The translations under genes were made by a program, and so were the position numbers. The notes below the pieces were generated by a model. The model saw only the letters and a list, made by a program, of their open reading frames with translations, ran no database searches and was not told where the DNA came from. Below are positions 5,517 through 63,100 of a stretch of DNA of 64,000 bases, one piece after another. Source of the DNA: Octopus sinensis (Eukaryota); the NCBI RefSeq assembly GCF_006345805.1, contig NC_043007.1:5022001-5086000 (forward strand), given 5' to 3'. Position 1 is the first letter of the stretch. Every line of letters begins with the position of its first letter.

Positions 5517-8500
5517 TATATATATATTATATATCTTCATCATCATAATCATTTAACATCCGCTTTCCATGCTAGCATGGGTTGGACAATTTGACTGAGG
5601 TCTGGCGAACCAGACTCCAATCTGATCTGGCAGAGTTTCTACAGCTGGAGGCCCTTCCTAACTCCAACAACTCCGAGAGTGTAGTGGGTGCTTTTACGTG
5701 TCACCGGCACGGGAGCCAGTCAGGCGGTACTGGCAACAACCTCGCTTGAATGTTTCACGTGCCACCAGCACAAGTGCTAGTAAGGCAATGAGGGAATGAT
5801 CACGCTCGAATGGTGTGTTTGACATGGCATCGGCACGAAGGCCAGCTTGTTGCTCTGGCAACGATCTCACTCGTATGGTATATATATATATATATATACA
5901 TAGTTAATCCAAACAAGAAAGCACAAAAAAACACAACAACGCGCGGACGTGGAACAAATATAGTATTATTGGACGCTCAGGAAAGAAGGAAAGAAGGAGG
6001 GTTTAACGTTTCGAGCGGAGCTCTTTGGCGGAAACATAGGAGAAGGAAAGATCCAGAGAAGGGAAGACAGAGGAAAAAAAATCGCCAACGGTACACACGA
6101 GGTCACATTTTGAAAGACCAGATATATATACACATATATAAGGCACATGCTTGGCTGTGTGGTTAAGAGGTTTGCTTCCAACCCAATCATCTTGGATTTA
6201 GTCCCACTGCATAACACTTTGGGCAAGTGGCATCTACTATAGCCCCAGGTCCACCAAAGTCTTGTGAGTAGATTTGGTAGATGGAAACTGAAAGAAGCCT
6301 GTCATGTATATATATATATATATATATATATACAAGGTGCGGTGAATAAACTGTCATCTAAATTGAGCAAAAATGAAAATAACACTGACATCTCATTTTA
6401 ACAGATATATCAGGTCATCCCATAAGTTCCGTCCGATTTTACCTTTTTTAAAATTGAATGAAATTTAATAGTATTTTAGAATGTCTAATGGAATTAGAAA
6501 TTATTTTTATGCATTTGTGTACAGATAACACAATTAAATATTACTTTACAGAATAATATAATTAAAATTTCTTTGATTAAAACCCTTTTTAACATGGAAG
6601 TATTCAAAGACCATTTAAGGCACATAATGCTTTATGAGTGAAAAAAAGGAAACTCTGCAGCTGAAGCGACTCGAAACATACACTCAGTTTATGGGAAAGA
6701 ATGCTTGAATGAAAGAACTTGCAGAAGATGGTTTTCAATATTTAAGTAAATTTATTCAATAAAGTCGCCATTGGCTTCAACCACAGCCTCCAGACGACTT
6801 TGGAATCTCCTGCAACTCTTATGGATGGTCTCCTTGTTTAAGTTGGTGAATGCAGCCATAATCCTTGCCTTCAGTTCATCTTTGGTGTTACAAGGAATTT
6901 TGTTGGTCATTCACTCAACTGCACCTCAAACATAATAATCAAGGGAGTTAGGTGGCCAGATGTTAGGGATGGTGTGGTCACAGAAATTGTCTGACAGCCA
7001 TGAGTGGCATGGTGCAGAGTCCTGTAGCCAGGCATAGGGTATTCCAGCAGCCACCCACTTCACCCAGGGTAGCACTACTTCCTCCAGGCATTTGATGTAG
7101 GTCACCGTGTTGAGTTTGAGGCCGTGTGGGAAGATGAATGGAGGCATAATGTCATCATCACTCCTGGATGTTCACTGGATGTACTCTCGGTACATATCCT
7201 CAGATTGCACTCTCCTCAAATTGACACTCAAACACTCTGAAATGTTTGTACTGGAGCTTCTGGTGTGAATGCCAAGCAGTACAGCATGTAGTTTTCAAAT
7301 TTCTGGCTGAGTGAATTGCATCATGGTGCTTTTTTGCTCATACATGGTGCCCATCTGACCCTACTATACTGCATAGTCAACAAATCAAAAAAAATAATGT
7401 GCATACATGAAACTAAAAGTACAAAATGGTGACAGTTTACCCATCGCATCCTGTATAGTGTGTGTATGTGTGTGTGCACATGCGTGTGTATGTGTTTGCG
7501 TGTAATGATTGTAAATGAGCATCCCCACCATACAAGCGATGTTGTTTGTTGCCAGGCTTCCAAAGATTACTTTGCTTGGAAACAGGTGAGGGTTGGTGAC
7601 AAGAAGAGCATCCCAGCTGTAGAAAATCTCCTGCAACAAATTCCATATGACCCATGGAGGAGTGCAAAAGTGGACGTTAAGTGATAACGATAATTAAGGT
7701 AACAGATAGGAGGCACCTGTTCCAATGAAATATCTTTGGCAATGAGAACAGAAGTGGGCACAGCCAGTTTTGTATTTATAAACACTCATCAAGGATCACA
7801 TTCTTTATCTCTCAACTGCCACAGTTAAAAATATATCTCACAGAAAATGTAAGCAAACTAGTAAGGACTTAAATAAATTTACATAATGGTATAAAGGCAC
7901 AACCATGGTCAAGTGGTTATGAAGTTGTAGTGACGCTATTTTGGAAGTTTCAGCGCACATGTGCAGAGTTGGATTACTTCCAGTAGGCTGCAGGAAGTTC
8001 CCTCGTGCATGCGCAGGAACTGCAAACTGAAAGCGTTCCCACTAAATCTTTCTTTTTGGAAGAGCAGCCCTAACGAGTGGACATGAAACTTCTCTCAGGG
8101 AAAACCCTACACACAGAGAAGCTCTCTTCAAAGTGGGAACAGAGACAGTATCTTCTTGGCTCACACAAGTGAACATTTATGAACAGTCTTGTGGACTTGG
8201 CTGCCGGTTCGCCCTTAAGGAAAATATATGTATATATTTTTATCTGTGAAACCCGGAAAATCAAGTGTTATTTATTGCTATTGAAGACAGTCGGATTTTG
8301 GTTCTTTCTTCGACAATTGTATGTGACAAGATAAGACAGACACCCCTCAAGTGTTCCTGAGACCATCATCTTGTTACAAAGTTTTTCCATAACCCTTTCA
8401 CATAACCTCCAAAGCAGAAGCAGCATGAATCAGATAAAATCAAATTGATGAGTCTAGTCCAGGTTTGTAGTTTCCATCAATCCAATTTCACTAATTGCCC

Positions 8501-10265
8501 CACGTGGGTCGGAAGAAGAAAAAAAGGGCCTGCCAAATGTGATGCATATTAAGATTGAACATGGGACCTTGTAAAATGCATTGCAAGCATTGTTGGAACT
8601 ACCAAGTGACCAAACTAAGTCAACGGTTGATGAAAATAAAATTTGGTTCTCTTTACATCATGCACCTTGCACACACGCACACAGGTTTTTTTCTGGCATC
8701 AGTTAATTGTAATTATCAGAAATTAATCAAAACCAAAGTACAAACACAGAAAATCAACACATTTTCATAATAGATTGTGGAAAAGACAGATCACATCTCC
8801 CTCTCTCTCTCTCTCTCTGACACTCTTTTACTCCTTCACTTGTTTCAGTCATTTGACTGTGGCCATGCTGGAGCACCGCCTTTAGTCAAGCAAATCGACC
8901 CCAGTACTTATTCTATCATGCTCCTTTTACCGAATCGCTAAGTTACGGGGACATAAACACATCAGCATTGGTTGTCAAGTGATGTTGGCGGGATAAACAC
9001 AGACACACAAACACATACACACACATACATATATATACGACGGGCTTCTTTCAGTTTCTGTCTACCAAATGCACTCACAAGGTTTTGATCGGCCCGAGGC
9101 TATAGTAGAAGGCACTTGCCCAAGGTGCCACGCAGTGGGACTGAACCCGGAACCATGTGGCTCGTAAGCAAGCAACTTACCACACAGCGACTCCTACACG
9201 TTTATAAAGAAAAAATTGCATAATTAGTGCATTAAAATGTTCTGAGAATATTAGAATGTCAATGATATTCTATATCAAATAATTAGCGGCAAATAGTTGA
9301 AAAGCGGCAGATATATCAGACAGAATATTACAAGAAAATAGAAAAAGGTCATAATTACCGAACCAGCCGAGGTCATTGATTGGTTGAATACTAGAGGAAG
9401 CAGCAGGAAAACAACTGAGTGTTACAGCAAAGGTCAACAGTGCTGCAAACCCCCATTTCCAAATCTGAAGATGAGGGGGGGAAAAAAACCAAATAAAACC
9501 AATGAATTAAAGCATAACCTAAAATGTGTGTGTGTGTGTGTGTATGCGCGCGTGTGTGTGAACATGTTCATGCATTTCTATGATGTGCATGCGTGTGTTT
9601 ATGCACACACTTATTCATCATCATCATCATCATCGTTTAGCGTCCGTTTTCCATGCTAGAATGGGTTGGACGGTTTGACCGGGGATCTGGGAAGCCAGAA
9701 GGCTGCACCAGGCTCCAATCTGATCTGGCAGTGTTTCTACAGCTGGATGCCCTTCCTAACATCAACCACTCCAAGAATGTAGTGGGTGCTTTTTACGTGC
9801 CACCTGCACAGGTGCCAGGCGAGGCTGGCAACGGCCACGGTCGGATTGGTGTATTTTATGTGCCACCGGCACGGAAGCCAGTCGAGGCGGTGCTGGCATC
9901 GGCCACGAGTCGGATAGTGCTTTTTACGTACCACCAGACCAGGGATCCTGGCTGGTTCAATTCGATTTCGATCATCATTTTAACATCCCCTTTTCTATAC
10001 TTGCATAGGTCCGATGGAATTCTCTGAGGGAGAACTTTCTATGGATAGACATCCTTCCAGTCACCCACCATCACCCGTTTCTAAGTGAAGAAATATTTCT
10101 GCTAATCCTTTGATCATGAACACCGTAATGGCCAGACAGGGTCTCATGGAACACAGCAAACAGAACGATACTGCCACTTGTATGACTTTGAGGTCTGTCT
10201 ATGACCAGTGTGTAATGCCAAGACAAGGAAACACACACACACACACGTGTGTGTGTATGTATGCG

Positions 10266-10297
<32 letters not shown>

Positions 10298-13200
10298 GAG
10301 GCGCAATGACCCAGTGGTTAGGGCAGTGTACTCGCGGCCGTAGGATCGCGGTTTCGATTCCCAGGCCGGGCGTTGTGAGTGTTTATTGGGCGAAAATACC
10401 TAAAGCTCCACGAGGCTCTGGCAGTGGGTGGTGGCGATCCCTGCTGTACTCTTTCACTCTTTCTTCTGTTGGCCTGCTCACTTAGCCAGCGGGGTGGCGT
10501 CATTTGAAGGCTAATACAATGAGAAGCGCATTGTGTGTAGAAACATCTGATAGCCTGGTCGGTCATGGTGATATATATATATATACATGTATATATATAT
10601 TGGGTGATCCCATGAATAATGTGTTTTTTTTTATACTTATTTTATTTTTCAAAATTATGATAAACAAAGTTCGTTTTTAATCTAAAATATACTCTCCTTC
10701 ATTTTCTGCAATACTTTTCCATCTATCTGGTAGACTTGCAAGGCCCCTCTTCCAAAATTCACTTCCCCGTCATGGAAAATACTCATCTACTACTATTCTG
10801 ACCTCATCTAAGACAACATATTTTTTTTCTGTCCAAATGATTTTGAAGACTGCAGAATAAATGGTAATCAGATGGGGCAATGTCTGGCAGGTGGGCATCG
10901 TTCCCCATTTAAACTGCTCCAGTCTTTGGAATGTGATCCTCGCTGTATGTGGCCGAGCATTATCCTGATGGAAGAACACCTTTTGTCTTGAAACCAGAGA
11001 TGGACGTTTTTCTTCATGTGCTGACTTAAGCCACTCAAGCTGCTCACAATAGATTTCCTTTGTCATCATTTGGTTTAGGTTTAAAAGTTAAAAGTGGACT
11101 AAACCTTTCACATCCCACCAAACAGATAACAATACATTACGTGGGTGAAGACCTTCTTTAGCCTGGGGTGCTAGAAATACTCATTCTGTTTATGGAAATG
11201 AAGCTTTAAGTGTCCAGAAAGGCCAATAAGCATTTGGCTAACTTTGCTTGGAAAATTTTTCTTTTAAAGATTCCCCTTGATCTAGATGACCAAATTTTGT
11301 TAATATGGAGTTTTAGAAAACCATACTTGAGGAAAACCCAAAGCAAACTTTGGGTTAACAAAACAATTCAATTTAAGTCACACTTCAATTATAAAGCACT
11401 TTCATGAACAACGAAATGTGTCTAAACCTATTTCTTTACTACCCACAAGGGGCTAAATACAGAGGGGACAAATAAGGACAGACAAACGGATTAAGTCGAT
11501 TATATCGACCCCAAAAGGATGAAAGGCAAAGTCGACCTCGGCGGAATTTGAACTCAGAACGTAGCAGCAGACAAAATATGGCTACGCATTTCGCCCAACG
11601 TGCTAACCTTTCTGCCAGTTTGCCGCCTAATGTGTCTAAACCTGGTCAGCGGGTTCCTGTGTTGTCTATCTGGACCCTGGCTCTGTAAACTACACCTATA
11701 ATTACACAATCTTGGTCTTTGAAATTACATTTCTGGTTGTTTCCTTCAGTGGTGCCAATAGTTTTGTTTGGTGTTTTTGTGTTATGCTGGTTTATTAGAG
11801 AGGTGAAGTTCTTGCAACAAGAACAGCTAACCTTACAGATTCTTCTATCAAAGATTCTATGGTATTTATGACAAGTTGGAAAATGTCTTGAGACTAAACT
11901 AAAAAGTTTTTTGCCTACATTAATTCAAACAGTAGCACTGAAGTTTCGGTTGAACAACAAAACCTTTCTAGTCCTAATCCTACATGCTCTATTATGGCTA
12001 CAGTCACTACAAATATACTGGATCCCCTCCGAGAATCCACTGCTATGCGGAGCATCATTATAGAAAGGGACAGCATTTTGAAAAGTTACTTTGCCTGAAG
12101 ATAATGATAAAATCCACCTCCCAGTATTACTAACCATATTCCATGGCTTGTAGATGCTAACTTTTCTCTTCTATAAATTTGGAACTTTGTACTCTATCAG
12201 TAAAAATAAGTCACCTACAGAGAATACTCACTGTATGTCTTGTTAACAAAACAGTACTTACTTTTAAAAAGACACTCCAGATACTGGACTGAACTTGGCG
12301 TTTATTGATTATTTTATCATTTTCATGGACATCATAAATATAGGAACTACCTGAAAAAAAAATGATAAATAATAACAACAACAACAATAATAATAATAGA
12401 GGATTTGAAGAGGGAAATACGAAGGTTGTGGTCAATGAGGAAAGTAGACTGAAAAAGATTGGTGAAAGTGTGAAGGTAGAACACCTACAAAAATGAGCAT
12501 TGCTTGGAATTGCAAGAATTCTTCGTAGGATTCTTGAAGCATGACCAGTAAACAAGTGTCACCTGAGTCTGCTGGCTGTGGACAGCTGACACTTTCCATC
12601 ATAACCAGCAAAATAAACTGTGTGTTTTCATATAATAACAACAACAATAAAAATCCTTTCTATTATAGGCACAAGGTCCGAAACTTGGGGGAGGGGGATA
12701 GACAATTACATCAACCCCAGTATTCAACTGGTACTCGTTTAATCGACCCTGAAAGGATGAAAGCTAAAGTTAACCTTGGCGGAATTTGAACTCAGAATGA
12801 AGCAACAGGCGAAATAATGCTAAACATTTCATCCACTGCACTAACAATTCTCTCAGCTGCCTCCTCTTCTTCCTCCTCAACAACAACAACAACAACACTA
12901 ACTCCTCTATGCTGATGACCTTGCTCTAATTGCTGAGTCACTATCAGAACTAGAGGGGAAGTTTCAGGTGTGGAAGCAAGGATTAGAATCGAAGGGCCTT
13001 AGAATAAACCTAGCTAAAACCAAAGTCCTAATAAGTAGGAAGGTAGACAAACCACAAATCCCTTCATGTAGATGGCCCTGCTCAATCTGTAGAAAAGGCC
13101 GAGGTATAAATTCTATAAGATGCACCAAGTGTAAGCTATGGACACATAAGAGGTGCAGCAACATCAAAGGAAGGCTAACTGGGAAGATAGTTTTTGTACG

Positions 13201-16200
13201 TGGCAGATGCTCAGGAGCAATAAATAACACTGAAAATGTGCAGAGAACAACTTCCGCCACATTTCAGGGAGAAAAACTAGAAGTAGTTGACAGCTTCCGT
13301 TACCTAGGTGACCAAGTCAGTAGCGGGTGAGGGTGCCAAAGTCTGCTTTCCATGCTGGCATGGGTTGGACAGTTTGACAACAGCTGGCAAGCTGGAGAGA
13401 TGCACCAGGCTCCATTCATCTGTTTTGGCCCGGTTTCTATAGCTGGATGCTCTTCCTAATGCCAACCACTTTACAGAATGTATTGGGCGTTTCTTTCGTA
13501 GCCCCAGCATGGGCGACTTTTATGTGGGATTAGCATGGGTACTTTTTATGTGGCACCAACCATGTATGAAATGTATATATTCATATATGCAGGAGTTTAT
13601 AAGATGTAATGTATGCATGTGTCTGTGTGTGTGTGGGGGGGAGATAGATATACAAACAAAGAAGGAAATAAAAAAGCTGGCACCCGGGTGGCTGCAGCGA
13701 TCGGCTTTCCAGTTGATTTGATCACCAGAACCACCTGCTTGAGAAATTAATGTGAAAGTGGCTGAGCGCATCACAGACAGGCATACACTTAACATGGTTC
13801 TCAGGGAGATTCAGCGTGATACAGAATGTGACAAGGCTGGCCCCCATTGAATTACAAGTAGAGCACATATTTGCCAGCTGAGTGGACTGGAGCAATATGG
13901 TGCAGCCATCTGGTTCGCCAGCCCTCAGTTAAAATCGTCCATGCTAGCATGGAAAGTGGATGTTAAACGATGATGATGATCATCATCGTCATCATCAGCC
14001 ATCCATTGTCCATACTGGCATTTATAAATATATATGCTTATGTATGCATGCATGTATGTATGTGTATGTGTGTACCCTTGTTCTGAAGACACATGTTCTA
14101 ACGGTTAAGGTGTTTCACTCATGAGAATCAGATTGTCAGTTCAATTCCTAGACCAGGCAATGGGTTGTGTTCGTGAGCAAAACACTTAATTTCACATTGT
14201 TCTAGTGCTGTGTGGTGACCACCATGCCAAAGAATAGATGCAATATTTCCCTTGCACTTCATAAAACCTTCACCACCAACAACAATCCAAACAGACCCAT
14301 GGGTTGCTGAGCACTTCACAGACGGACATACACTTAACATGGTTCCCAGGGAGATTCAGCGGGATACAGAATGTGACAAGGCTGCCCCCCACCCCTGAAT
14401 TACAGGTAGAACACATATTTGCCAGTTGAGTGAACTGGAACAATATGAAATGAAGTGCCGATAGACACAATGCTAGGAATTGAATCCATCACCTTACGAT
14501 TGTGAGCTGAATGCCCTAACAACTACGCTACATGCCTCCACGCACACATGCATGTGCACACACACACATCACATCACATCCAACAGGTTGCTGCATACAT
14601 TCTGCCTGTTAAATGGCCAACTTAAGGCTATGATAGAAAACATTCTGCTTTAGGTGCCATTAGGATATTGAACCTGGAACCATGGAGCTGTGAATGCAAC
14701 TTCTTAGCTACACAGCCATGCCTGCACCATAGGTTTTCTCACTATATTGAAAAAAAATCAATAATGATAATAACGAAATTATTGTATACAGTGCTCAGGT
14801 GCACCACAACTTGTCAAAAGTACATATAAAGCATATGCAGTAATGTACAAATGTCTGGAAAGTGAACAGTGTATGAGTCAGATACATGCTTGCGTGTGTA
14901 TGGAGGGGAGAAAATCAGGTGTAGTGTTGGCGAATCTCAGGAAGCATGGAAGGTTTGAAGGATGCAGTGCTCCAACAACTAACAACTGATGCCGGCAGTT
15001 TGTTCCATGCTTCAGCAACACAGCGTGAAAAAATGTTTCTGAAAGTCATGGGAGCTGTGCTGTTTTCTGACTTTGTAAACATGTCCACGGGTGTTAGACA
15101 GGTGGAGTTTGGAAAGGTGCTCAGAGTTATTGTTTGTAAGATGGTCAATAATTTTATGGGTGTCTGCCAAGTCAGCTGCCAGACGTCGGAGTTTCAGTGT
15201 GTCCATGCCCAGGGAAGTAAGGCGTTCAGAATATGGCAAATGCCTGATGGAGGGTATTCTCTTGGTTGCATGACACTGAACAGCTTCCAGACGATTAATA
15301 TCCTGGGCAAGATAGCAAGCCTTCTTCTTTGCTAGCTTGGCTAGAAACAGATTTTGTTTGTTTGTTGTTTGTTCTGAGACAAAATACTTTTACATGAGAG
15401 TACACAATAAATAAATAACTTAAAAGTGATTTTTTTTAAATGTTTAATTTATTTTGTTAATTATGAATAATTATGAAACTTACCCTCTCTGAATATATAA
15501 TATCTTGAAAATTCCTGAAAAATTTTAATAGATAAATAATTAATAATTCTTTCTAATTTTGGAATAAAATTTTGAAGGGAAAGGGCAAGTTAATTAAGAT
15601 TTTAATTTTGGAACAATTTATTTCAAAAAGTTTAGAAGTATGTCTACCAATTTTATAAATAAAGAGTTCCTAGCCACAGGGTTCCAGGTTCAATCCCACT
15701 GCGTGGCGCTTTGGGCAGGTGTCTTCCGCCACAGCCCCGAACCGACCGAAGCTTTGTGATTGAATTCGGTTGGCGGGAGTTACTGCCGTGTGTGTGTGTG
15801 TGCGTGTAGGCGCTCAGTGCCTCTCCGAAAGAAAGAGAGGGAGTAATTTTTACAAAATAAACACAAAAAAGATAATTGTCTACATCCTCACCATCACTAC
15901 CACAACACACACACCACCACCACCACTTTTTTTGAATAACTTATATTCTATATGTACAAACTAAGCCATTAAAAAAAAGGGAGTAAAAAAAGAAAAAGAA
16001 AACATGCGAAGAAAGAGAAGAAATATGGCAGTAAAAGTAAAAGGAAATGGCAAATTATTGAGATAAACATGACTTACCAATTTGTATAAATAGAAATATC
16101 CAAAGAAGGTTAAAATGGTGACTAGGATAGCAATTATGAAGTATAGGAGAGCACTGTCTGTAACTGAAGGAAGCGTAGCTAATGCCAGGATATTTGCCAA

Positions 16201-17939
16201 AGAAGCAAATGTTCCACCGAGAGCCTTGAAGGAGGAAGAAAAGAAAAAGAAAAGGAAATTAGAGATAATTTGCATTTTTAGATAGAAATATGGATCTTAA
16301 TTATTATTGGTTTCAAATTTTGGCACAAGGCCAGCAATCTTAGGGGAGGGGTTAAATTAATTACAATCACCCCAATGCAGCGTGGAAGGTGTTTATAAGC
16401 CATTTCAGAAACACACAAAAACCATTAGATTCACTTCAACATTTAAATATAATTTGTCAAAATATTTTCGTTGCTTTGAGACCGTGACCTGTTCACTGAC
16501 AAAACTTCGTGCTGCATCAAAATGTTTTGACAAATTAAATTTAAATGTTGAAGTGAATCTAATGGTTTCTTAAATGGCTTATAAACATCTTCCACGCTGC
16601 AATTGTTTTCGTTCCAGCACACGATCTCAGATCAAGTCACTCGCTATGCAAGTGCATCTCCGTAATGACCCCAATGTTTAACTGGTACTTAATTTATCAA
16701 CCTCAAAAGGATGAAAGGCAAAGCTGAACTTGTCAGAACTCTGTAGATGGATGAAATGCCACTACGCATTCTGCCCCAGCGTGCTAACAATCCTATCTGC
16801 TCACCCCCTTCATCTTAACTAAGAGTTTTTGACATCATAAAATCTGATTTTTATAAACTTTTGAGTAAACATGAAATAATTGTGTTTTGGAACAATGGAT
16901 CTTGAAACACACATAAAGACATAAATGGTAGCATTAAATACTGGGTTGAAATCCCTTTTGGATAAGAGAAATTCATGGCTGCCTATTGAAAAAGTGTTTT
17001 TCAACCTAATATTTCCATGTTACGTTTTTATTGCTATCGTTTAACGTCTGCTTTCCATGCTAGCATGGGTTGGACGATTTTGACTGAGGGCTGGCGAACC
17101 AGACGGCCGCACCAGGCCCCAATCTTGATCTGGCAGAGTTTCTACAGCTGGATGCCCTTCCTAACGACAACGACTCCGAGAGTGTAGTGTGTGCTTTTTA
17201 TGTGCCACCGGCATGGTGTCAGTCAGGCGGTACTGGCAATGACCTTGCTCGAATCTTTTTACACATGCCACCGGCACAGGTGCCACTAAGGCGATGCTGG
17301 TAATGATCACGCTCAAATGGTGCCCTTTTATGTGCCACCGGTACGGAGCTAGTTGGCTGCTCTGGCAACGATCACGCTCGGATGGTGCTCTTGGTACCCT
17401 ACTAGCACGGGCACAAGTGCCAGTAAGGTAACAATCACAGCTGTTGCATAATTTAGTTGCAATCCTTCTTGGTTTGATTTCAAATCCCACAGAGGTCACT
17501 GTAATGGGAGATTACACAAAATTGATTTCTAACATGCACAAGTCCCTAACTTTGAAAGAAAGGGTATATGGTCCCTTATAACGATCCCAATACTTGATTA
17601 GTAACAATAATTTGTAGAATTCAACCTCTGAAGAAACTTGAAACCAGAATGTAGAAATGTAAGAAATTATTTGCAAAACATAGTCAGTGGTTGTGCTGTT
17701 TATTGTCACCTGTCTTCATTTGTAAGCTTTTATTGTTGACACTTACCTGTCCACCCATTAAGGCATTGATGTATTTCGTTGGCATTATACTGGCGAAACC
17801 AAGGGCCGTGGCATTCAATACAGCAGATGATCCTGGTAAATAAACAGCAATGATAATGATTAGGTATACTAAAAGGGGAAAAATTATCCATATGTAAAGA
17901 TCTGAAAATAGAGATAACATGAGTGAGGGGCGAAAAAGT

Positions 17940-28724: not shown

Positions 28725-28763
<39 letters not shown>

Positions 28764-34220: not shown

Positions 34221-34249
<29 letters not shown>

Positions 34250-37343: not shown

Positions 37344-37398
37344 ATGTCCAGAACCATGTAGTTGGAAGGCAAACCTCTTATCACACAACTCTCCTGTA

Positions 37399-41356: not shown

Positions 41357-42235
41357 TATATATATATATATATATATATACACTGTTGTGTCTGGGGAGA
41401 GTCATTCTCTTTTAGTGCCTCATAATTTAACATACTCCCCAGTAAAATATCCACTTATTTCTTTTTTATTTTCAACCTTTTCAATACTTTTGACTCTTGA
41501 AAAGGTTGCAAGATGGAACCTGTAGAAGAGGTAGACCCAGGAAGACATAGGATGAGGTGGTGAAGCATGACCTTCGAACGTTGGGCCTCACAGAGGCAAT
41601 GACAGGAAACTAGGACCTTTGGAGATACACTGTGATTGAGAAGACCTGGCGACTAAAGTGAGAGTGCAGCCATGGCCAATGCCAGTGTTGTATATCCAGC
41701 CCATTTCAGAGTACCTTTGATGTGTTGGGCAATATAATATGCTTGAGAAGACCTGTTGAGTCAAGTAAAACCAATATCATAGCTGTGGCCAGTGCCCCCT
41801 AATAGGCTCCCATGCCGGTGGCACATAAAAAGCACCAACCAAACATGACTGATGCCAGTACCCCTTGATTGGCTCTTGTGCCGGTGGCATGTAAACAGCA
41901 CCATCCGAACATGGCTGATGCTAGTGCCCCTGGACTGGCCCCTGTGCCGGTGGCATGTAAAAGCACTATCCAAACATGACCGATGCCAGGCCCACCTGAC
42001 TGACTCCTGTGCTGGTGACATGTAAAAAGCACCCACTAACTCTCAGAGTGGTTGGTGTTAGGAAGGGAATCCAGCTGTAGAAATTTTGTCTGATCAGATT
42101 GGAGCCTGGTGCAGCCATTGGCTCTCCAGACCTCAGTCAAACCATCCAACCCATGCCAGCATGGAAAATGGACGTTAAACGATGATGATGATATATATGC
42201 GCATATGTACATGTGTGTATATAAATATACATGTG

Positions 42236-45269: not shown

Positions 45270-48200
45270 CATGTGGGGGTGCGGTGGGGGTACATAACCT
45301 GTAAACTGCAAAATGCCAGCAACATTGACAGGAAGAATAGCTTCTCCTGGATCTGTGGTAAGTTCATCACGTCTCACTGAGAAGGCTATGCCTTTGCAAT
45401 CCCAAAACGAAAGATTTAGGCTAAACATCCGATCACTGAGAGACAGATGGTCTCTAAACCTTACACTGTAACAAAAAGTGTTGGTTGTGCCTAACTGTTA
45501 TATCCTTAAAATTTTAGATTGTTATAACACCCACTTCCGTATACAATATACTTAGTAAAACCAATAAGACACGACTATCTCTGACCACCTACTACGTACT
45601 CTCTTTATTCATAATGACTAAGTCATTCCATTCATCACATGGGAGTTGTGTACCATTGTTACTAATTCCCTACAACATCTCCCCTTTTAAGTTTTTCGTA
45701 GGAAGTGTCATTTTATTTAACAATAATATTTTTTATTCACCCCCACCTCCTGCTGCCTTTCTGCTCTTTAAGCTCTTCACGGCTTTGCGAATTTCTGGCT
45801 CGGTGATTTCTCCCGTGTGGATATTGAGCGGGAACCCTGGCCTCAATTCTGGCGGCTCTTGGGGTGGAGGGCGGTTAAGTGTTTCTTGGAAGTGTTCCTT
45901 TCATCTCGCTATACACGCCCAAAGAAATTATGATTGTCGGCGCACTAGGTAATTGACGACGCTATTCTATAGGAACGCCTATATATATTATTACACTAAA
46001 AGATAATGACCATTAACTCTAAATCGTAACAAGCAATCTGACGATAAACAATGAACATAGTGGACCGTGCAATCAGCTGTATCACAGGGAGCCTGTTATC
46101 TCTTCTAAAATTAGTGATTTAAATAGAATTTTCCCACTTTATATAACAGGGGCATTCTTTCGATAAGGGTTATAATGCCGAGAAAGAGAAGAAAAAAAAA
46201 CAACAAAAAAGCAGGTCATCACTTTGTATTGAAAAGTTGGGGCACTGGGAAACCTGTGTAATGGCTATTGAGGCACGCTAGCAGGGTCTTTTCTATTTTA
46301 GATTGGCACTTAGAATAACTTTCAGTATAATTTGCTATGTTACGGACTGAGCAGTTATTTTGGGTGTAAGTGCTTGTCCATACATCTATGTGTATGCATA
46401 TAGGGGGCTAGGGCAGTTTCGAAGCTCTCCTTGGAAAATGCATTAAAAAAAACCTTTTTCGGATTCCTATGTTTTAGATGTCAAGAGATTACGAATATGC
46501 AAAAACAAAATAGATTTTTTTAAAACTTCATCCACCCCGCCTCCTTGACAATTTTTGATTTTGTTTACTTGGATGGTATCAAATTGACGAGCAATAAGCA
46601 AATCGAAATTAAATACAGAGGAAAACATTGAAGTGAAAATAATTTGCGTTTTACTCGTGTTTGCCTTAAATAATCATCGTAAATAACAATTTAATGCAAA
46701 TTAAATATACACCATTTTATGTGAAACAAACATTGATGTTTAATAATTAATGTTGTAAAGTTTAAATAAGGGGCTCAAATCTCACCCTCTCCCTCAATTT
46801 TATATTTTGAACTTTTTCATCCATTTATCTATTTATCCCTGTCCGTTTATTCATAAAATACATTTGTCAACTAAATGTGGCGGTCCTATAGAAGAAGAAG
46901 ACAGTTGTTACTGTTGTTTTTAGCCCCAGGAAGACATTCATATCTATCTCTTTATACACTTTTCTATATGATTATTGAATTTAAAATGTTGAAAACGCAA
47001 TTTCTTGCAATATTCGGAATCTACGTCATCTAAAACATGGGAGGGGGGACTGCATTAGCCCTCCTCCATATATGTACGTGTCTATACTTATGTGTTTATA
47101 AACATAAAGGTCGGAGGTAAAGACAACGGACCGCACCCCCTTTGGGGTGTCTTTTTTTTTTTTTACAGTAACCCACAATATCGAGTGCGAAGATTCCGAA
47201 TCTGCAAAATTTAACCCCCTCCCTTTCCACCACCCCTAAATTTCTCCAATTTTCACTTTAAAAAATTTTTTTCTTGGTGAAATACGTAAAAGAAAAATAC
47301 GGAGATTATAATTACGAGAAAAAATTCTGTAAACTTTCAATTTATCAAATAAATAAATTAATTAAATAAACACCCCACCCCTCCGCCCTGAAGTGAAATT
47401 AAAGTGTTTTGTCTACTAATATTTCATGACGAACATAACCCAACATGTTGTGGCCAGGGTCTTTTGGAATTAAGAGACGTATGTAAAAGTTGGATTTCTA
47501 GCACACACACAGCAAAATGACAAGGAATATACTTTCATTTTGTTGGCAGATTCATTTGTCAGAAGAAAAAAAAAAAGTGTCTTGTAGTATTTGTTCAGGA
47601 CCTGTACGTTATGAATTCAAATTTTGCCGATATTAACTTTATCCTTTCACCCCACCGGAATCGATAAAACAAAATATTAGCCAAGTCCTGGGGCGGATGA
47701 GTTCAATATTATCGCTTAATCACAGGTATGTCATAAACATGTCATAAACAATTACGGTCGTGTAGCTAAATTATAAACAATTATATAACTAGATTTTCTA
47801 TTTGTCATTTTGTTGTTATTCTCTTAACAACAAAATGACAAATAGAAAAAAACAGAAAAAAAGCGATTAATGTAAAGCAAGCACAAATGGTTTTTCGTTT
47901 TTTAAATATATAATGATCAATCGGTGAAGCTATTTTCATCGTAAATAATATAAAAGCGAAATCACATGAAAATTAAAAGAAAACAAATTATCTACAGGGT
48001 GTCCACGAAGTCTGAGTACATGGGGATTAACACATACTTTAAGAAATTATTATTTCTTATATTTAATTCTTTGTTATGATTTTATTTACTCCATGTACCC
48101 ATATAGGGATTAACACATACTTTAAGAAATTATTATTTCGTATATTCAATTATGTTATGATTTTATTTACTCCATCTACCCAGACTTCGTGGACACCCTG

Positions 48201-49195: not shown

Positions 49196-52100
49196 TGTGT
49201 GTGTGTAAGGAGTAATTATTATGAAGCATTGTGTAGAATATATTGTATAAAGGATCGTGGGTAGGGCCAAAACCAGGCGAAGTAAATCACAAGAAAACAA
49301 ATATGTGAATTAATGGCAACATACATCAATTTCTTGAAAATGGGGTCATAACCTAGAAATATTGAGTACAAGGTGTGTCTACATTAATTCACATATTTGT
49401 TTTCTTGTAATTTACATTGCATTTACTTCGCATTGTTTTGGCCTTACCCACGACCCTTTATACAATATATATATATATACTGGGGTTGGACAAAATAATG
49501 GCAACACTTTAAAATTTCAAACAAATTTACTTTAAAATGGGGTAACACCATCTTTGGCAGTAATTACAGCTTGAATTCTATGAGGTATGGACTCATACAA
49601 AGTTTGAATTGTTTCCAAAGGAATTTTTGTCCATTCTTCAGCTAAAACAGTATCCACTTCTTGTTGTGAAGATGATGGAGAATATCGACTCCTTACTCCC
49701 TCAACTGCTTCTTGTTCACGGGGGGGGGGGGGTTACCCACAAGTCTCGGGAGTGGCCATGGTAACAAGAATAGGCCCCCAACTATATGAACCTTTTTGGT
49801 GGCTACATTGAGGCCAAAATATTGTCAGGATTCACTGGTCCCACTCTCAAACTATAGACTCGTTATATTGACGACTGAATCGGTGCTACCTCGCTCTCCC
49901 ACGAACAACTACACTCCTTCCTCTCTTTTGTCCAATCCTTCCATCCTGCCTTCGAATCCTCCTGCCCCATTTCCAACACTTCTGTCGCATTTCTCAACAT
50001 TTCGCTCAACATACACAACTCTGCTCTCACCACCTCCATCCACTACAAACACACCGACTCACACTCCCACGTTAACTTCTCCTCCCACCCTACCCACACA
50101 AAGCTCTCCATCCCCTACTTCCAATTCCTCCGTCTGCACAGGCTCTGCAGTGAAAAACATGACTTAGGGACTCAGTCTCAATTCATGGCTCGCCACTTCA
50201 TCCTTCGTGGATACCTCCTGACACAGCCCTTGCCAGAACATGAACCATGGACCATGCCTCTGTTCTCTGTCCCTGCACCCACCCTGGCATTGCCTGTCTC
50301 CCATTTTCCCTCACCTACCGCCCCCTCCAACGCACCATTCTCCAAGCCTTTCAGCAACTCCAGTCTGACATCTCCAGTTCACACATCTTCCCCAACCTAC
50401 CCCCTTGCCTCCTTCAAGCAAACCTACAACCTGCATGACCTCCTGGCTCACAGTTTCTTCCCTACCCCTACCTCCCAACCTGGCTTGCTCCCTCCTGTGC
50501 TGCTGCACTTACTCCTGCCTTTCCAACACCATCATCCTCACAGGCACCCATCACCATCCCTATCACAGGCTCCTCTATCTGCACTTCTAGCAGTGTCATT
50601 TACTGCATCTCCTGCTCTTCTCTGTACATTGGTCAAACAGGACGCCACTCGGTTCACGGAGTGCCTCTGAGACATCAGACTCAGCAATAACACCCTGGTC
50701 ATTCACTGCAACATCTGTCTGTGTTCAGATTGTCTTTGCACAGGAGCCATCTGGACTCCTGCCTTCACCGTGAATAGGAATTAATCTTCTCTCTTCACTC
50801 CTTTGCACCACATAGGTTCAACTCTCCTCCTATCTTCATCTGACATTTACTTCTTCTCTTCACTCCTACCCACCTCTCCTCTCTTCCTCTGACACCTACT
50901 TCCTCTCCTCAGTCCTATACCACTTCTCACTTCGTTGATACCCACCCTACCCCACTCACACCCCTACCCCACCCACACCCCTACCACCACATCACACCAT
51001 CCTACACTAGCACTGACCACTTCCCAGCACCCACACCATCATCCACACACCCACATATTACAGATGCACACACACGCACACATCTATATACGTCAAAGTC
51101 ACTAGCCCCTATTCACACGTACACACACTTACACATTCTTACATTCACATTCATGCACATGTACCTTCGGTATGGGATCACCAATACTTTATTATCTCCC
51201 CTTCTTTCTACCTCTCCTGTAAAACCTTTTTTTTTTCCCAACCAGTCTCCATGCTTGACTGCTAAATCCACAAGTTTTTTTATATTCTGTCTCTATTTAT
51301 TTTCTCTCATTCCTTTCTGTTGAAGAGCTTAGGCTCAAAACATAAAAAAGTTTCTCACTTTCCTGAGCATCAAACTAATGCACCTGTCTTTTGTTTTTCT
51401 GTAAATTTCATGGCGCTGGTCGATGCCAGTGCCACCTTGACTGGCTTCCGTGCTGGTGGCACGTAAAAAGCACCAACCGATCTTGACCGTTGCCACCTCC
51501 TCTGGCACCTGTGCTGGTGGCACGCAAAAAGCACCCACTACGTTCTCGGAGTGGTTGGCGTTAGGAAGGGCATCCAGCTGTAGAAACTCTGCCAGATCAG
51601 ACTGGAGTCTGGTTTGTCAGACCTCAGTCAAATCGTCCAGCCCATGCCAGCATGGAAAACAGACGTTAAACGATGATGATGATGATAAACAGGCGATGGG
51701 CTTCTTTCAGTTTCTATCTACCTAATCCACTCACAAGGCTTTGATTGATCTGTCACTAAAGTAGAAACACTTACCCAAGGTTTCACACCATGGTACTAAA
51801 TCTGGAACCATGTCCCCCCATTGCACGACCAAGACTGCATTCTTACTTTCAATAGAGGGTTTATGTGCAGGTTTGATGAGTCAACTATATTGCTAAGAGC
51901 AATAATAAACATGAAGCCAAAGGTTTCAGACAACCTATAACCAACAACTACATTAAATGTATGGATGGATGGATGCATGCATGCATCAGTTTTATTTCAA
52001 GATTTCTTGTCAATAGAGAAAGAACTGGTTTCTAACCTAGATCCAAGGCTCCTTCATTGGAATTCCAATATCAACAACAGGCTATTTTTGTATGTATGTA

Positions 52101-54683
52101 TATATATGCGGAGATTTGTATGTTTTGTTTTATGCATGTCTTCTCATGCATATCTAGACATGCTCATATATACTTAAATGATAAACTTCTGAAAAGTTTT
52201 ACAGATTTCTACAGTTCCAGTGATGGTTGAATCTACAGCCTTTGAGTCAGCTTTCTCATTTCTATGTTTGAGAAGCCTAATTCCTCTAGATTGGTATTTA
52301 GGCAGTGTCACATATCTGCTACATCCGCACTACGGTTCTGTAGAGGACAGCAAACCTAGCGATGAGACTGACAATATTTTTGAGCTTCCAGCAGATCATC
52401 CAATGGAAATGCTGGAAGAAGTGCCACAAATTCAGAGACTGACCAGACCACTTCTATCCAAAACCAAACCGCTTGTACCAGAGTATGAACCAGACAACTC
52501 AAGACAATCCAAAAGAACACCCAAGCCTAGAAAGAGACTTAGTTATTGATTCTTTTAGTGTAGCATCAGTTTTGGTGGGGAGCTGTTCTGGCAATCACTG
52601 GCCAATAGAATCCAAAGTTCTGGAACTCATAAGAATGTCCACAAGACATCTTAATTGTTGTTTATGTTATTATTAGTCTTGCATTTTACAGTTGGAATAA
52701 ACAGACTTCACACCTATCTAGTGCCCAAATAATTACAGGTATAAACCTGAACTTGTAGTATATATGTATGTCTTTTCTGTATTTAATCATTTAAATTCTC
52801 CTTCTGAAGAAGGAGCTATTTTCTACCAGAGATACTAAGTTCCATCTTTGAAATGTAGATAATGAAAACGATGTCACATTTTAAACCTGAGAGAAGTCTT
52901 GCATAATTTTACCATTCCGCTTACTGATTGTATTTGTAATGTGCGAATCAGTTGGTTTATTCCTTCCTCTGAAAATCCAAGCTTATCCAGACTGACAGTT
53001 AGGCATTTGCTTACAAAATCAAGTGCTCCAAATACTATCGGTATAAATGTAAATTTGTAATCCAGGTAGAGGAGAAGCTGGAGGTCCATAGCTATCTCCT
53101 CTCTCTTTGATTCTCAAAGAGATATTCCCATTAGCAGAACAGCTGACCTCTATGATGGTCCTTACTTTTTCATGTTCAACTCAAACAGTATACGACCTGT
53201 TATGTTTACATTTGACAGATGTTTTGACGGGAATGTTCCACCAGTCTCCCTTGTGCTGGAATTTGTGTATGTTTTCAGTAACAGGACGATTCTCTACATT
53301 TATTCAAGGACAGTCTCAAATAAATGACATTGTGCATTTGGTTTTGTGGTGTCATGTTGCACAGACAAGTACTACCTTGGTATGTATGTATCTATGCATG
53401 CATGAATGTATACTTATATATGTGTGTATACATGATGGACTCTCCTGCTGGATTTGATGCCCAGCACATGCATTCCTCACTGTGTCTCTAGGAAGAGTCT
53501 TCAATCATTTTCTTGATCTTGGTCTTGCAGCCAGAGTGGTTGGTGTGTCTCTAAACCACAACCCACGCCTAATAAATCCATTGGATTACAACTGGAGGAA
53601 TTAGGAGGCCAGAAATCGTGGCTGATGAAGTCACAGAAATGTTTGGTCAACCACATGTCTGGAGGTATAGCAAGGATCCAAAACCTGCTGAGACACATAT
53701 GACCTTCCAGCAGCAGCAGCCCTCTCCAGCCAACGTTTGACCACAATCTCCTGCAGCTTCACACAGCTGCCAGAATTGAACCTAAAGGTCTTGTTCATCC
53801 CTTGTTGGATTAATTCTGGCATACAGATGCAGTTGGGATGCTTGTTGTGTTCCTTTCTGTTGGCGTCATGTCTTCCAGTCTTTACTGTGTTCAAAGAGCT
53901 TTGAGCAACAATCCTGATATTGGCAGTTTCATATCTGCTACAAATCATCATGATACAAAAAGAGACCGATTCAGTTGGCCTCCACTCCTCCATTTCAGCC
54001 ATCTTTCTCTCAACTCCATCTTTAATTTTTATGCTCTCCAACACTGTTCAGTGTTCACCGATACATCATGGTACCTGTAAAAAAAAAAAGGAGATTTATA
54101 CAAGAATCTTTTTTGATCACTACAATCATTTTAACCCATCTCAATAGAGATTCTTGCATCTTCCATCTCTCTCATTAATTACATTCCTAACAAACACTAA
54201 GCCAATGAACATGCTTTACTGGCAAACTATCAGGTGTATTCCATACAATTTATTAAATACTACATATATGTTTGTGTGTGTGTGTGTGTGTGTATTAGCA
54301 TTCTTTCATTTCCATTATGGCAAGTGTCAAGTTTGTCGTGTCAGCTGATTTCCTAACAAATGTCATTTTTAGCAATTTATGGAAATATATTTTTTTTATA
54401 CTTTTGCATTTGACAATGTCATTCATATACTGGAGATTGCCAAACACACACACACACACACACACATATACACGCACATATACATTGTCAAACACAAAAA
54501 TATATAAATACTAAATGCAAAAAATTTGCCAAGAATGATTTCGTGTGTTGGGGAATCATCTGGCACAGATTAGATGCTTACCATACTCGAAATGAAAGAA
54601 TGCCAACCACCAGTGTACGTTTGCATACATCTCCATTATGCAGTGGTGCAGCAGTAAGATACCGAAAGAAGGAGTAATAGGGT
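45270..54683 (-). CDS. Candidate unannotated gene; exons 54582-54683, 48231-48293, 45270-45465 (possibly also 51847-51934)
   Basis: Open, phase-compatible AG..GT segments: PYYSFFRYLTAAPLHNGDVCKRTLVVGILSFRV-W-AHDMSITSSDVVPVHDFIYV-F-VRFRDHLSLSDRMFSLNLSFWDCKGIAFSVRRDELTTDPGEAILPVNVAGILQFTGYVPPPHPHM. Start and end unresolved. Confidence 0.4.
46398..47072. mobile_element. Old non-autonomous DNA transposon with terminal and subterminal inverted repeats
   Basis: GGGCTAGGGCAGT / ACTGCATTAGCCC; ATGTTTTAGATG..GATTACGAATAT versus its reverse complement near 47010-47040. Confidence 0.5.
47794..47849. repeat. Perfect 25-bp inverted repeat with 6-nt spacer
   Basis: TTTTCTATTTGTCATTTTGTTGTTA-ttctct-TAACAACAAAATGACAAATAGAAAA. 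Confidence 0.9.
47995..48200. mobile_element. Tc1/mariner-type MITE with an internal ~80-bp tandem duplication
   Basis: TA TSDs; TIR CAGGGTGTCCACGAAGTCTG perfect at both ends. Confidence 0.9.
49238..49470 (+). mobile_element. Inverted-repeat element (~80-bp arms) with a degenerate hammerhead-like loop
   Basis: Arms 49238-49315 / 49382-49470; loop contains TTGAAAA-TG-GGGT(CATA)ACCT-A-GAAA-TATT. Confidence 0.55.
49690..51410 (+). mobile_element. Decayed Penelope-like element (RT + GIY-YIG endonuclease, 3' hammerhead-like motif)
   Basis: Frameshifted YPQVSGVAM..GPNY..GYIE, RYIDD, HYKHTDSHS..SSHP..SIPY.QFLRLHRLCS, FKQTYNLHDLLAHS, CTSSSVIYCISC..LYIGQTGR; motif at 51313-51348. Confidence 0.85.
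52300..52752 (+). mobile_element. Possible Gypsy 3' remnant (pol tail, PPT, LTR)
   Basis: RQSKRTPKPRKRL pol-tail motif; GGTGGGGAG followed by TGTTC; AATAAA at ~52696. Confidence 0.4.
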
Positions 54684-59587: not shown

Positions 59588-59790
59588 TTGATATCAGATC
59601 AGTTTGATATGTGATCAGTTAATATCTGATCAGTTTGATATTTGATCAGTTAATATCTAATCAGTTTGATATCTGATCAGTTGATATCTAATCAGTTTGG
59701 TATCTGATCGGTTAATATCTAATCAGTTTGATATCTGATCAGTTTAATATAAGATCAGTTGATAACTCATCAGTTTGATATCTGATCATC
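59588..59790. repeat. Minisatellite of ~15-17-bp units GATATCTGATCAGTT(T)
   Basis: About a dozen tandem units; looser copies back to 59330. Confidence 0.85.
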
Positions 59791-60661: not shown

Positions 60662-61195
60662 CTGAAATAAAAAAAAAAAAAATGTGTTTCAATTTGGGTG
60701 AAATTCTCATGAAAATAATGAAAAGGTGTAAGAATGTGATGCTATATGCACAGACACATTCACACAAGAAAAACCTTCAAATGAATACAAAAGCTTGAAA
60801 TGATGTGATGTAATATATGAGTGTGTATATGTATGTATGAATACATATATATATATCACTGTGACCGACCAGGCTATCAGATGTTGCTACACATCGCTGG
60901 TCACAATGCGCTTTGCACTGTTGTAGCCTTCAAATGACGCCACCCCACAGGCTAAGCGAGCAGGTCAACAGAAGAAAGAGTGAGAGAAAGTTGCGGCGAA
61001 AGAGTACAGCAGGGATCACCGCCACCCCCTGCCGGAGCCTCATGGAGCTTTAGGTGTTTTCGCTCAATAAACACTCACAACGCCAGGTCTGGGAATCGAA
61101 ACCACAATCCTACGACTGCGAGTCCGCTGCCCTAACCACTGGGCCATTGCACCTCCACACACACACACACACACACAAGAGAGGGACAGACACAG

Positions 61196-61232: not shown

Positions 61233-62269
61233 TACATACACACACACACACATATGTATCCACCTTTATGCAAAAATACATGCATCTTTGCACACACATA
61301 TTTATGTGTGTATTTGCATGCAAATAAACATATATGTACATTCATACACACACATACATACATGTACATAGAATTTCTTCTGGGACTATACAAAAGTTTA
61401 TATCATAATATACGTATAGCTACACGCATGCACAAAAAACACCCATACATACAAAAATACACATAAAACAGTTCTTGAGTGATTGCAAAAGCTTATATGA
61501 TATATGCAAACACGTGTGTGTGTGTGTGATGCAAATGAATAAATATGAATTGGAACCTTTATACGTGTGACAACATTAATTCAAAGTAACTCAATAAAAT
61601 TTTAGTTGCGTTTCACATGCACCCCATTTTGTGTTAATTGCTATAGCATGCTGTGACACGGAGAGTTAATTGCAGTAAAATGCTATTAAAATAAATGAAA
61701 CTCATTTGATAATAGAACACAAGAAAAGAGAATAAAACCATACTCAAAAGGCATTAGAAGAATATCAGAGACTTCATAAATCAAGTGGTTAACTTTTTAT
61801 AATAAATGCCACTCACACACACACACACACACATTTAGTGAAGGCAAGGAACAAAAAGAAAAAGGAGGCGGGACAAGTGTTAACAAACATTGTATTAATT
61901 TAGTACTTAAAAAGAAAAAGAGTTTTAACATTTTGGACACTAGTCCTTTGTCAGTGGAAAAGTAAAAAGATTGTGGATGAAGAAAAGTGGACATATATGC
62001 ATATATTTGAATATATGTGTGTATGGAAGTCTGTTTACAAATACATATGTACAGAAAATTAAGTTAATCAGTTACCATTCAATTAAATATCTCTGTATTA
62101 TTGAAGGTGTAAAACACAAAGCTAATATATCCTGATATAGAAATATGCACACACACAGTATATTCATTATACATATGTGTATATATATATATATGTCTGT
62201 ATATATGAATTTTTTGTGTAATGAGATAAAAAAAACCAAGGCTGTGTAGATATTAGAACATTTATAGAT

Positions 62270-63100
62270 AGAAGGTCTTACAGCTGTTTCCAGGATATTT
62301 ATTAATTATATCCCTTCATCGGAGACGGTGTGAGAGGAAAAGTTAAGACATAGTTAGTTTCGTCTGTATATATATCTATAAATGCATATATATACATATA
62401 TGTCTGTATATGCATTTATATGTATATATATTTTTACATACAGTTCAATATATGTCTGGTTATAGAGTGAGAATGATTTTGCATTCCTAGAGTGCTTAGC
62501 TTTATATATGATTTGTTAAACTCTGACGGCAGAGGATATATAATCCCTCTTCAAACTGGAGGTAGAAATCTGGTATGGTCAGTTAATTTGTAAAAAAAAG
62601 GATAAAAATACCTTTTGAGGTTTAGACAAGATTAGTTATCTCCCTTAGACCAGTTCTGTTGACAAACAGGGAATCTGTGCCCTTTGGCTGTTTCCAGCCT
62701 CTGAGGATGTCTTCTGGTTCGAATCAATAAATGGGGGATCTCATGCTTGCAGCAGGTAGCAATTGAAAATGGGGGCTGGGGATATAGATATCATGTTTAA
62801 AATTTAAGAGAAAACTGGGTCCAGGGAGTCTTTAAAGATACTTATTTGCTCTGCTATGCAAAGTTTGCTTTGTCCCTTCCTGTTTATTTAGGACCCTGGC
62901 TGCTCTATGATCCTCCATTTAATTTTGTATGGGGTTCTCTCATCCTTAAGGCACCATACATGGCTGGCCAGGGATGAGATGTAACAGACTGTCTTTCCAC
63001 AATCCTGAAAGAGGACCTATGGTTGTATAGGTCCTGCTTAAGAGCAGTTCCTGCTGACCTGATATACCTCCAGACTTGAGAGCTGGTTGTGTTCACACAT
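62270..63100 (-). mobile_element. Decayed Penelope-like element 3' part (GIY-YIG endonuclease + downstream hammerhead)
   Basis: YIRSAGTALKQDLYNHRSSFRI / SHVWCLKDERTPYKIKWRIIEQ..KLCIAEQISI..LLNFKHDI fits the PLE GIY-YIG pattern (YIG..FK.R..H..SF; IKW.I; C.LC..EK; LLN). Confidence 0.7.
62275..62326 (-). ncRNA. Type I minimal hammerhead ribozyme motif
   Basis: GTCT-CCGATGA-A-GGGATAT(aattaataa)ATATCCT-G-GAAA-CAGCTG-TA-AGAC: stem I GTCT/AGAC, 7-bp stem II, palindromic stem III, GUA cleavage triplet; U4C core change. Confidence 0.7.

Follow-up and report, generated by a model that had tools for sequence, protein, structure and literature searches.

We analysed a window of 64,000 nucleotides (nt) of Octopus sinensis DNA (NC_043007.1, from an assembly of 2.72 Gb; "the window" means this whole stretch), which is rich in microsatellites and short repeats and contains nine hammerhead-like motifs. 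With a probability of about 85%, these motifs are mostly decayed minimal type I hammerheads at the 3' ends of seven families, six linked to coding Penelope-like elements (PLEs) and one a non-coding tandem unit, copied by a Penelope-type reverse transcriptase (RT) with a GIY-YIG nuclease; the fold is predicted to cleave weakly, as a dimer or with the help of protein. All nine motifs listed in an initial annotation of the window are present. It had counted at least five sequence families, and we found seven: A (6001), B (21021 and 51313), C (16450 and 26043), D (27775), T (37265), E (49334) and F (62275). Exact genome matches to the motif patterns, which are lower bounds on copy number, amount to 3,524 for A, 15,150 for B, 1,277 for C, 11 for D (vs 1,722 first-look candidates), 3,900 for T, 82 for E and 452 for F, while the reversed patterns gave no genome match for any of the seven families.

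Most copies had been described as degenerate, and six of the nine window copies are indeed decayed, largely through CpG decay or a small deletion; in the family T copy (37260-37304), a 5-nt deletion takes away the 3' strand of stem I. A descriptor of the intact fold, drafted in a strict and a relaxed version only after the families had been seen, finds no intact fold in the window when strict and two when relaxed (21025 on the forward strand and 26086 on the reverse strand), and none in 40 shuffles. The copy at 62275 fails the G10.1-C11.1 rule of the descriptor though it is typical of family F, since the non-Watson-Crick first pair of its stem II is the usual, aberrant form of that family. Elsewhere in the genome, five loci (L478-L482) carry canonical-core type I hammerheads that pass Rfam RF00163, and three of them resemble one further family.

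Every family has a stem I of 3-7 bp, a seven-base core, a stem II, GAAA, a perfect stem III palindrome and U-H. The palindrome is perfect in all seven families, reading ACGU in A, B and T, AAUAUU in C, ACGCGU in D, AUAU in E and ACAGCUGU in F. The pair G10.1-C11.1 is kept in A, B, C, D, E and T, and F is without a G-C first pair; the extra base between positions 9 and 10.1 is usual, missing in four of 20 D copies and ambiguous in F. The core had been given as (C/T)TGANGA. The rest of that layout is kept, but the core reads CCGANGA in A and F, CTGTNGA in B, GTGAACA in C and TTGAAAA in E, and the canonical C3 U4 G5 A6 N7 G8 A9 occurs in D and T only. Several families thus have non-canonical cores, as had been proposed: U4C in A and F, A6U in B, and a swapped 3-8 pair in C and E. 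Five families (A, B, D, F and T) have C-G as their tertiary 3-8 pair, E has U-A and C has G-C, so that the covariation check suggested by the initial annotation returns three Watson-Crick states across families; this was tallied family by family, without a covariance model, as the loops vary too much in length from one family to another to be aligned automatically.

The variant cores are family traits. In family A the core is C3 C4 G5 A6 C7 G8 A9 with U17, and U4C was present in 30 of 30 loci; the same change is found in most F loci. For family B, A6U was built into the pattern that still matched its 15,150 places, and position 7 is free (12 T, 9 A, 6 C and 3 G; n=30). The swapped core of family C was seen in 18 of 25 loci found by homology and in 21 of the 25 that could be parsed among 30 upstream-pattern loci (five unparsed), with loop II in 13 forms. 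U17 is the main form in A, C, E and T, and it is also found in several related PLE hammerheads from metagenome contigs, so there is nothing special about it; related PLEs on such contigs carry the same fold. Statements on published work here and below refer to the parts of each source that were covered. The minimal hammerheads of PLEs are listed with the same features as the layout of our seven families (PMC4209133). U3-A8, U4C and A6C are reported natural hammerhead variants (PMC3088659) and C3G/G8C is an engineered partial rescue (PMC11167929), and neither a natural G3-C8 nor A6U was found in the literature searched, supplementary alignments being outside its scope. Judged by sequence, all seven families have PLE-type minimal type I hammerhead folds that are predicted to be self-cutting.

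Coding sequence behind the families

RT or GIY-YIG coding sequence lies upstream of the family B motif in four of 30 unbiased loci and in a window relic, with a cysteine linker of Neptune type; RT and GIY-YIG are both found at L063, L077 and in the relic. In the latter (49698-51400), a long pyrimidine-rich 3' region follows the coding part and leads to the family B-type hammerhead at 51313. Two motifs had been placed directly 3' of GIY-YIG relics. This holds for 51313, which belongs to the relic's own 3' end, but 62275 is part of a separate neighbouring insertion. Family A is young (best copies 96-99% identical), and its coding link was found on the same strand in two of six extended loci: RT, linker and GIY-YIG 2.7 kb upstream in L555, and the nuclease 1.7 kb upstream in L558. 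The names Poseidon and Neptune are based on motifs and homologue lengths, the clade of A and B on the linker motif.

Family C copies mostly start 15-30 nt before the core. An upstream-anchored search found the end of a GIY-YIG open reading frame (ORF) 1.0-1.4 kb upstream of the motif in five distinct loci among 30, and the idea of C as a small non-autonomous element was dropped once these coding parents appeared. About 25 nt before the C core stands a stretch resembling a branch point, pyrimidine tract and AG, then an ATG (L567-L596; 437 exact matches), and most C copies begin at this stretch. In family E the end of a GIY-YIG sequence lies just upstream in two of 30 loci. A splice-donor-like AG|GTAAGT is found 3' of the E hammerhead (49370-49385, forward strand) and in most E copies (L428-L457); PLE pseudo-long terminal repeats (pseudo-LTRs, pLTRs) are known to keep introns. 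For family F a GIY-YIG end was found about 1.1 kb upstream in one locus, inside inverted arms that are 99% identical. The F-linked GIY-YIG shares 29-36% protein identity with the old relic at 62.8-63.0 kb of the window. That the 62275 motif is part of this relic was ruled out: none of 19 other F loci matches the relic, and none of 19 other relic copies has F in line behind it, one having a partial inverted F match some distance off.

Overall, RT and GIY-YIG were seen for T, A and B, and the GIY-YIG part alone for C, E and F. Because this coding sequence lies upstream and on the same strand, in at least two loci each for A, B, C, E and T and in one for F, these six families are most plausibly 5'-truncated ends of protein-coding PLEs. 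In A, B, E and F the 5' ends form a continuous range and look like ordinary truncation. The initial annotation had proposed a set of non-autonomous, retrozyme-like or SINE-like elements (SINE, short interspersed nuclear element) mobilised by PLEs; the upstream coding sequence removes A, B, C, E, T and F from such a set, and only D stays in it. Family D is a non-coding, low-GC unit repeated head-to-tail with a period of about 540 bp (in L123, L124 and L552 the tail is joined to the head). Neither its 20+11 loci nor three extended loci contain a PLE ORF match, and D appears to be the sole non-coding, retrozyme-like unit among the seven families.

That PLE machinery made the insertions, as had been suggested, agrees with the marks they carry. 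An inverted 5'-truncated copy with an optional 3' tail is seen in T, C, D, E and F and is not evident in the A and B samples; further marks are a variable break of the inverted 5' arm, short duplications and (TA)n targets. Inverted arms, tails and (TA)n targets are among the PLE insertion marks described in PMC8557442. Pieces of different hammerhead-bearing PLE families often adjoin or nest (L292, L143, L445, L090 and L124), which suggests shared insertion targets.

Family T and its tRNA-like head

Family T has 3,194 first-look ORF candidates, of which 150 were scored. Loci L292, L295 and L307 pass in frame from the pLTR into the ORF, and the ORF end joins the same pLTR: a stop codon, about 25 nt and then the head follow one another in 19 of 30 ORF loci, and an inverted pLTR stands at the 5' break in 14 of the 30. 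This pseudo-LTR repeat, in which the 3' end repeats the 5' end and the ORF start, was shown for T alone. The near-full-length L292 begins within the head and continues into the ORF; in L295 the reading frame stays open from an ATG 5' of the hammerhead, across the tail and towards the RT; and L236 has an open piece of 551 aa. Homologues of the T protein are 825-850 aa long with RVT_1 and PF26215, some being annotated as GIY-YIG, and a PDB search gave weak RT matches only. The 3' ends are bimodal, 18 of 30 being tail-less and 12 having a tail of about 30 nt, with none between.

The head aligns collinearly with tRNA-Arg(TCT) at a score of 64 (shuffle mean 35, maximum 51; 0 of 300 reach it), and the window copy scores 58, best to tRNA-Cys (0 of 300 shuffles). 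The 3' flanks of 30 related PLEs reach scores of 33-46, and T copies that have diverged reach 43-60. The comparison set held 35 distinct tRNA genes of this genome from only seven amino-acid types, and for this reason the isotype, tRNA-Arg(TCT), is tentative. ARAGORN does not call the head as a tRNA, and Rfam calls neither a tRNA nor a hammerhead in the window or on the T loci. No A/B-box pair was found 3' of related PLEs in 50 loci with enough flank. Behind the head, 23 of 30 loci pass into the hammerhead body and seven end in or just after the AAT run, and none of the 30 has an alternative tail. The look of a SINE comes from the tRNA-like head; T as a pure tRNA-SINE was dropped when coding parents with the same head were found, and the head is part of a protein-coding PLE whose 5' end it forms. 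Many T copies open with a fold-back palindrome of their own first 15-100 nt (L002-L030 and L597-L626), and fold-back joints at the start of the head also occur, on the opposite strand, in RNA-seq reads.

Whether the head is a working promoter or a captured SINE fragment at which cDNA stops stands at about even odds. The second account, which we rate a little below an even chance, holds that a tRNA-SINE fragment was captured in the 5' untranslated region of the PLE, that the transcript is made by RNA polymerase (Pol) II or read-through, and that cDNA stalls on the structure of the head. Against it stand A and B boxes at tRNA spacing, the start of L292 in the head, and the roughly 25 nt from stop codon to head, which leave little room for another promoter; a head too decayed for ARAGORN and Rfam is in its favour. 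The 5' ends can be read in both directions. Among head-anchored loci 27 of 30 end within the 55-nt zone between -14 and +41 and three run into the ORF, whereas five of 30 ORF-anchored copies end within 55 nt (Fisher P 1e-8), which argues against capture; the spread within the zone is wide, with 16 of 30 ends at -5 to +12, as capture would have it, and some of the 27 are fold-back junctions. Runs of four T (T4) are absent from the T column majority over about 2.6 kb, and only one of 32 T-matched related PLE ORFs is without them (mean 2.57 per kb), which again speaks against capture. However, against a dinucleotide null the absence falls short of significance (P 0.25 for one half and 0.23 for the other), and in a synonymous shuffle of one copy 904 of 2,000 sequences had a T4 count at or below that observed.

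RNA-seq of family T, from three raw runs of one study, perhaps of a different species, and covering about 6% of each, shows L005 at high depth, equally on both strands, with 75-80% of reads extending into dissimilar flanks and no pile-up of read starts or ends, again favouring capture. Depth falls 2.4-3.2-fold at the start of the head, where there are 308-393 loose ends; these mirror genomic copy ends as much as transcripts. The signal is passenger transcription and speaks neither for nor against a short Pol III RNA. A protein-coding transcript made by Pol III would have no cap, a further point for capture. The most far-reaching alternative, in which T is a protein-coding PLE with an internal Pol III promoter of tRNA type, the element of about 2.7 kb avoiding terminators, the solo pseudo-LTR acting as a self-promoting SINE, and the G3-C8, A6U and U4C cores being active and selected, seems doubtful. 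The source of solo T units may be internal initiation in the 5' pLTR of a full-length RNA or Pol III transcripts of their own.

Competing explanations

Seven unrelated families sharing the full layout with three Watson-Crick 3-8 states are hard to reconcile with chance look-alikes in AT-rich, palindrome-rich repeats, as are the lack of any descriptor match in the shuffles, the position of the motifs, which is that of known PLE hammerheads, and the same fold in PLEs of metagenome contigs. We regard chance as most improbable, even though Rfam calls none of the motifs, six of the nine window copies are broken and the descriptor was written after the families had been seen. It is less far-fetched, but still unlikely, that the families are non-autonomous elements in their own right, retrozyme-like or SINE-like, which use borrowed PLE proteins. 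The head-to-tail D unit would fit this, as would the shortness of most copies in every family, the usual start of C copies close to the core, the tRNA head of T in which 27 of 30 head-bearing copies start, and the origin of retrozymes from pLTRs proposed in bioRxiv 10.64898/2026.07.22.740005; it is opposed by the same-strand upstream coding sequence in at least one locus of six of the seven families and by the truncation-like 5' ends of A, B, E and F.

Several results weigh against our preferred reading of coding-PLE ends with hammerhead folds. The Hammerhead_1 check proposed by the initial annotation was run: Rfam calls none of the nine motifs, with no hammerhead among 108 window matches at E<=10, where the relaxed descriptor finds its two intact copies, and the genome-wide Hammerhead_1 search gave seven matches, of which five were inspected and proved to be other motifs. 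When natural copies were folded as dimers with ViennaRNA, the palindrome helix formed in one of eight sequences (F only). U4C, A6U, U17 and the mismatched first pair of F are expected to lower activity, as reported for U4C and A6C (PMC3088659), and the predicted hammerheads of some families may be catalytically dead. RNA-seq shows no pile-up of read starts or ends, also at the predicted cut site, the library type being uninformative for cleavage. On the coding side, a Pfam scan of three ORF pieces returned no family, the A link crosses 1.7-2.7 kb of CA-rich sequence, just one of 55 hammerhead-anchored C loci has coding sequence within 1.5 kb, and the F link is a single locus; independent non-coding source genes may exist within A, C or F.

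If the motifs are PLE ends, their insertion could proceed as follows. The PLE protein would bind the element RNA just 3' of the hammerhead (from PMC11167929 and PMC4209133), nick AT-rich DNA and begin cDNA at one of two internal sites, hence the optional tail. The cDNA would mostly stop after 100-300 nt and often fold back, leaving most copies with the hammerhead-bearing end only. Cleavage by the hammerhead would be weak, dimer-based or protein-assisted, and insertion may not depend on the hammerhead. In T, transcription would start at the tRNA-like head, most likely from the internal A and B boxes, and cDNA reaching the 5' end of the RNA would yield SINE-like solo units.

Other features of the window and relation to known systems

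Coordinates are collected in Table 1. A very abundant short repeat with internal tandem units of 62-67 bp ends in (GAT)n (1170-1586, 28345-28750, 39887-40520, 41774-42192 and about 15 more), and one (GAT)n-ending copy lies directly behind the 51313 element. A second repeat family with a tRNA-like head occurs at 10282-10599, 44747-45126, 60826-61171 and 63401-63768; a partial slice of its head scores 49 against tRNA-Lys (1 of 300 shuffles). Judging by their motifs, we take 1968-2652, 12900-13311, 37672-38221, 22750-23423 and 14925-15389 to be decayed RT fragments of long interspersed nuclear elements (LINEs; RTE-like and CR1/L2-like), and 6840-7162, 38339-38677, 10773-11087 and 53634-54047 to be decayed Tc1/mariner-like transposase fragments. 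Two inverted copies of about 390 bp (26569-26949 and 33064-33445) lie 6 kb apart and are 89% identical. There are also a tandem array with a 31-bp period (59588-59788), an (AAG)54 run (34220-34380) and a hairpin of about 60 bp with weak microRNA-model matches (47792-47855).

Table 1. Hammerhead copies and their carriers in the window
Feature	Positions	Strand	Remarks
Family A 3' end, Neptune-type PLE	5915-6122	-	ends in (TA)n
Family A hammerhead copy	6035-6001	-	A6 and G8 lost in this copy
Family C insertion	16376-16666	-	forward arm 16518-16376; inverted 5' arm and ~58-nt tail 16519-16666; short direct duplication
Family C hammerhead copy	16503-16453	-	core swapped to G3-C8; break in stem II
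Family B 5'-truncated 3' end, Neptune-type PLE	20991-21165	+	in (TA)n
Family B hammerhead copy	21021-21056	+	intact fold; core CUGUNGA, A17
Family C insertion	25982-26265	-	forward arm 26106-25982; inverted arm and tail 26112-26265; short direct duplication
Family C hammerhead copy	26093-26043	-	intact fold; G3-C8, 7-bp stem I, AAUAUU palindrome, U17
Family D insertion	27582-28019	+	inverted arm and tail 27582-27713; forward part 27725-28019
Family D hammerhead copy	27775-27828	+	canonical family core, ACGCGU, C17/A17; palindrome broken here
Family T solo pseudo-LTR, Penelope/Poseidon-type PLE	37112-37353	+	head, (AAT)n, ORF start, hammerhead, tail-less end
tRNA-derived head of family T	37112-37190	+	A-box and B-box motifs; by alignment to genome tRNAs
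Family T hammerhead copy	37260-37304	+	inside first codons of PLE ORF; C3U, C11.1U
Family E insertion	49209-49470	+	inverted arm and tail 49209-49312; forward pLTR part 49313-49470
Family E hammerhead copy	49329-49368	+	U3-A8 core; stem II damaged here
Decayed Neptune-type PLE	49698-51400	+	RT 3' half, cysteine linker, GIY-YIG to ~50844
Family B-type hammerhead copy	51313-51350	+	CUGUUGA; G12 and palindrome lost here
Family F short 3' end of probable PLE	62195-62362	-	inserted in (TA)n
Family F hammerhead copy	62326-62275	-	U4C core, 8-nt ACAGCUGU palindrome, A17
Old GIY-YIG-like relic, separate family	62400-63150	-	relic at 62.8-63.0 kb; copies 71-78% identical

The role of the hammerhead for PLEs is the question on which these families bear. 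In one reconstituted system protein is needed for cleavage and insertion works without the hammerhead. This genome has tens of thousands of copies whose sources kept the fold, swapped the 3-8 pair in three ways and fixed changes expected to weaken catalysis, also in a young family. The copies form a natural mutagenesis series able to tell a need for cleavage from a need for folding and protein binding. The usual partners of SINEs are LINEs; many octopus-type short repeats labelled as unclassified SINEs may be PLE ends. The Pol III reading of T, if true, would mean that a PLE can give rise to a SINE and that a coding retroelement can be transcribed by Pol III. A 2026 octopus repeat annotation reports active Penelope families and 893 unclassified SINE families, with no mention of ribozymes in the text covered (PMC13282606), and the octopus SINE OR2 is listed as a CORE SINE (PMC4758252).

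PLE minimal hammerheads as scattered single copies are already known; the family-fixed G3-C8, A6U and U4C cores and the tRNA-headed coding PLE appear to be new. A search of the open literature, with subscription journals, Repbase and Dfam outside it, found no PLE with a tRNA-derived end or a Pol III promoter. The minimal hammerheads of metazoan PLEs (Cervera and de la Pena 2014, PMC4209133) are like ours in the short stem I, the extra base between 9 and 10.1, G10.1-C11.1 and the palindromic stem III, and also in the many families per genome, the mostly truncated single copies and the U3-A8 variant of family E. They differ in that G3-C8 (C), A6U (B) and U4C (A and F) as family-fixed PLE cores are absent from the main text of that paper, its supplementary alignments being outside the comparison. 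The Neptune-clade PLEs (Craig et al. 2021, PMC8557442) share with A and B the RT, cysteine linker, GIY-YIG, (TA)n targets and a hammerhead near the 3' end, and are unlike them in the fixed U4C of A and A6U of B, the clade of both being assigned from the linker motif. Non-LTR retrozymes (PMC7229834; bioRxiv 10.64898/2026.07.22.740005), like D, are non-coding, low-GC and head-to-tail with one type I hammerhead per unit. D is set apart by its minimal hammerhead, its unit of about 540 bp, PLE inverted arms with a tail, and partial dimers only. The derivation of retrozymes from pLTRs is already present in both sources, and the text covered of the preprint mentions neither tRNA nor octopus.

The Poseidon element PAc of Anolis (Frangieh et al. 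2024, PMC11167929) resembles family T in the hammerhead over the ORF start, the two discrete 3' ends, the optional tail within the ORF, the tandem and inverted copies and the lack of RNA-seq ends at the cut site. In contrast to PAc, T opens with a tRNA-derived head bearing A and B boxes. The C3G/G8C swap engineered in PAc occurs naturally in family C. Solo T units are also like the schistosome SM-alpha (PMC6765202), in which one short repeat has both a promoter of Pol III type and a type I hammerhead; SM-alpha is non-coding with a canonical hammerhead, whereas the head and hammerhead of T are the end of a coding PLE.

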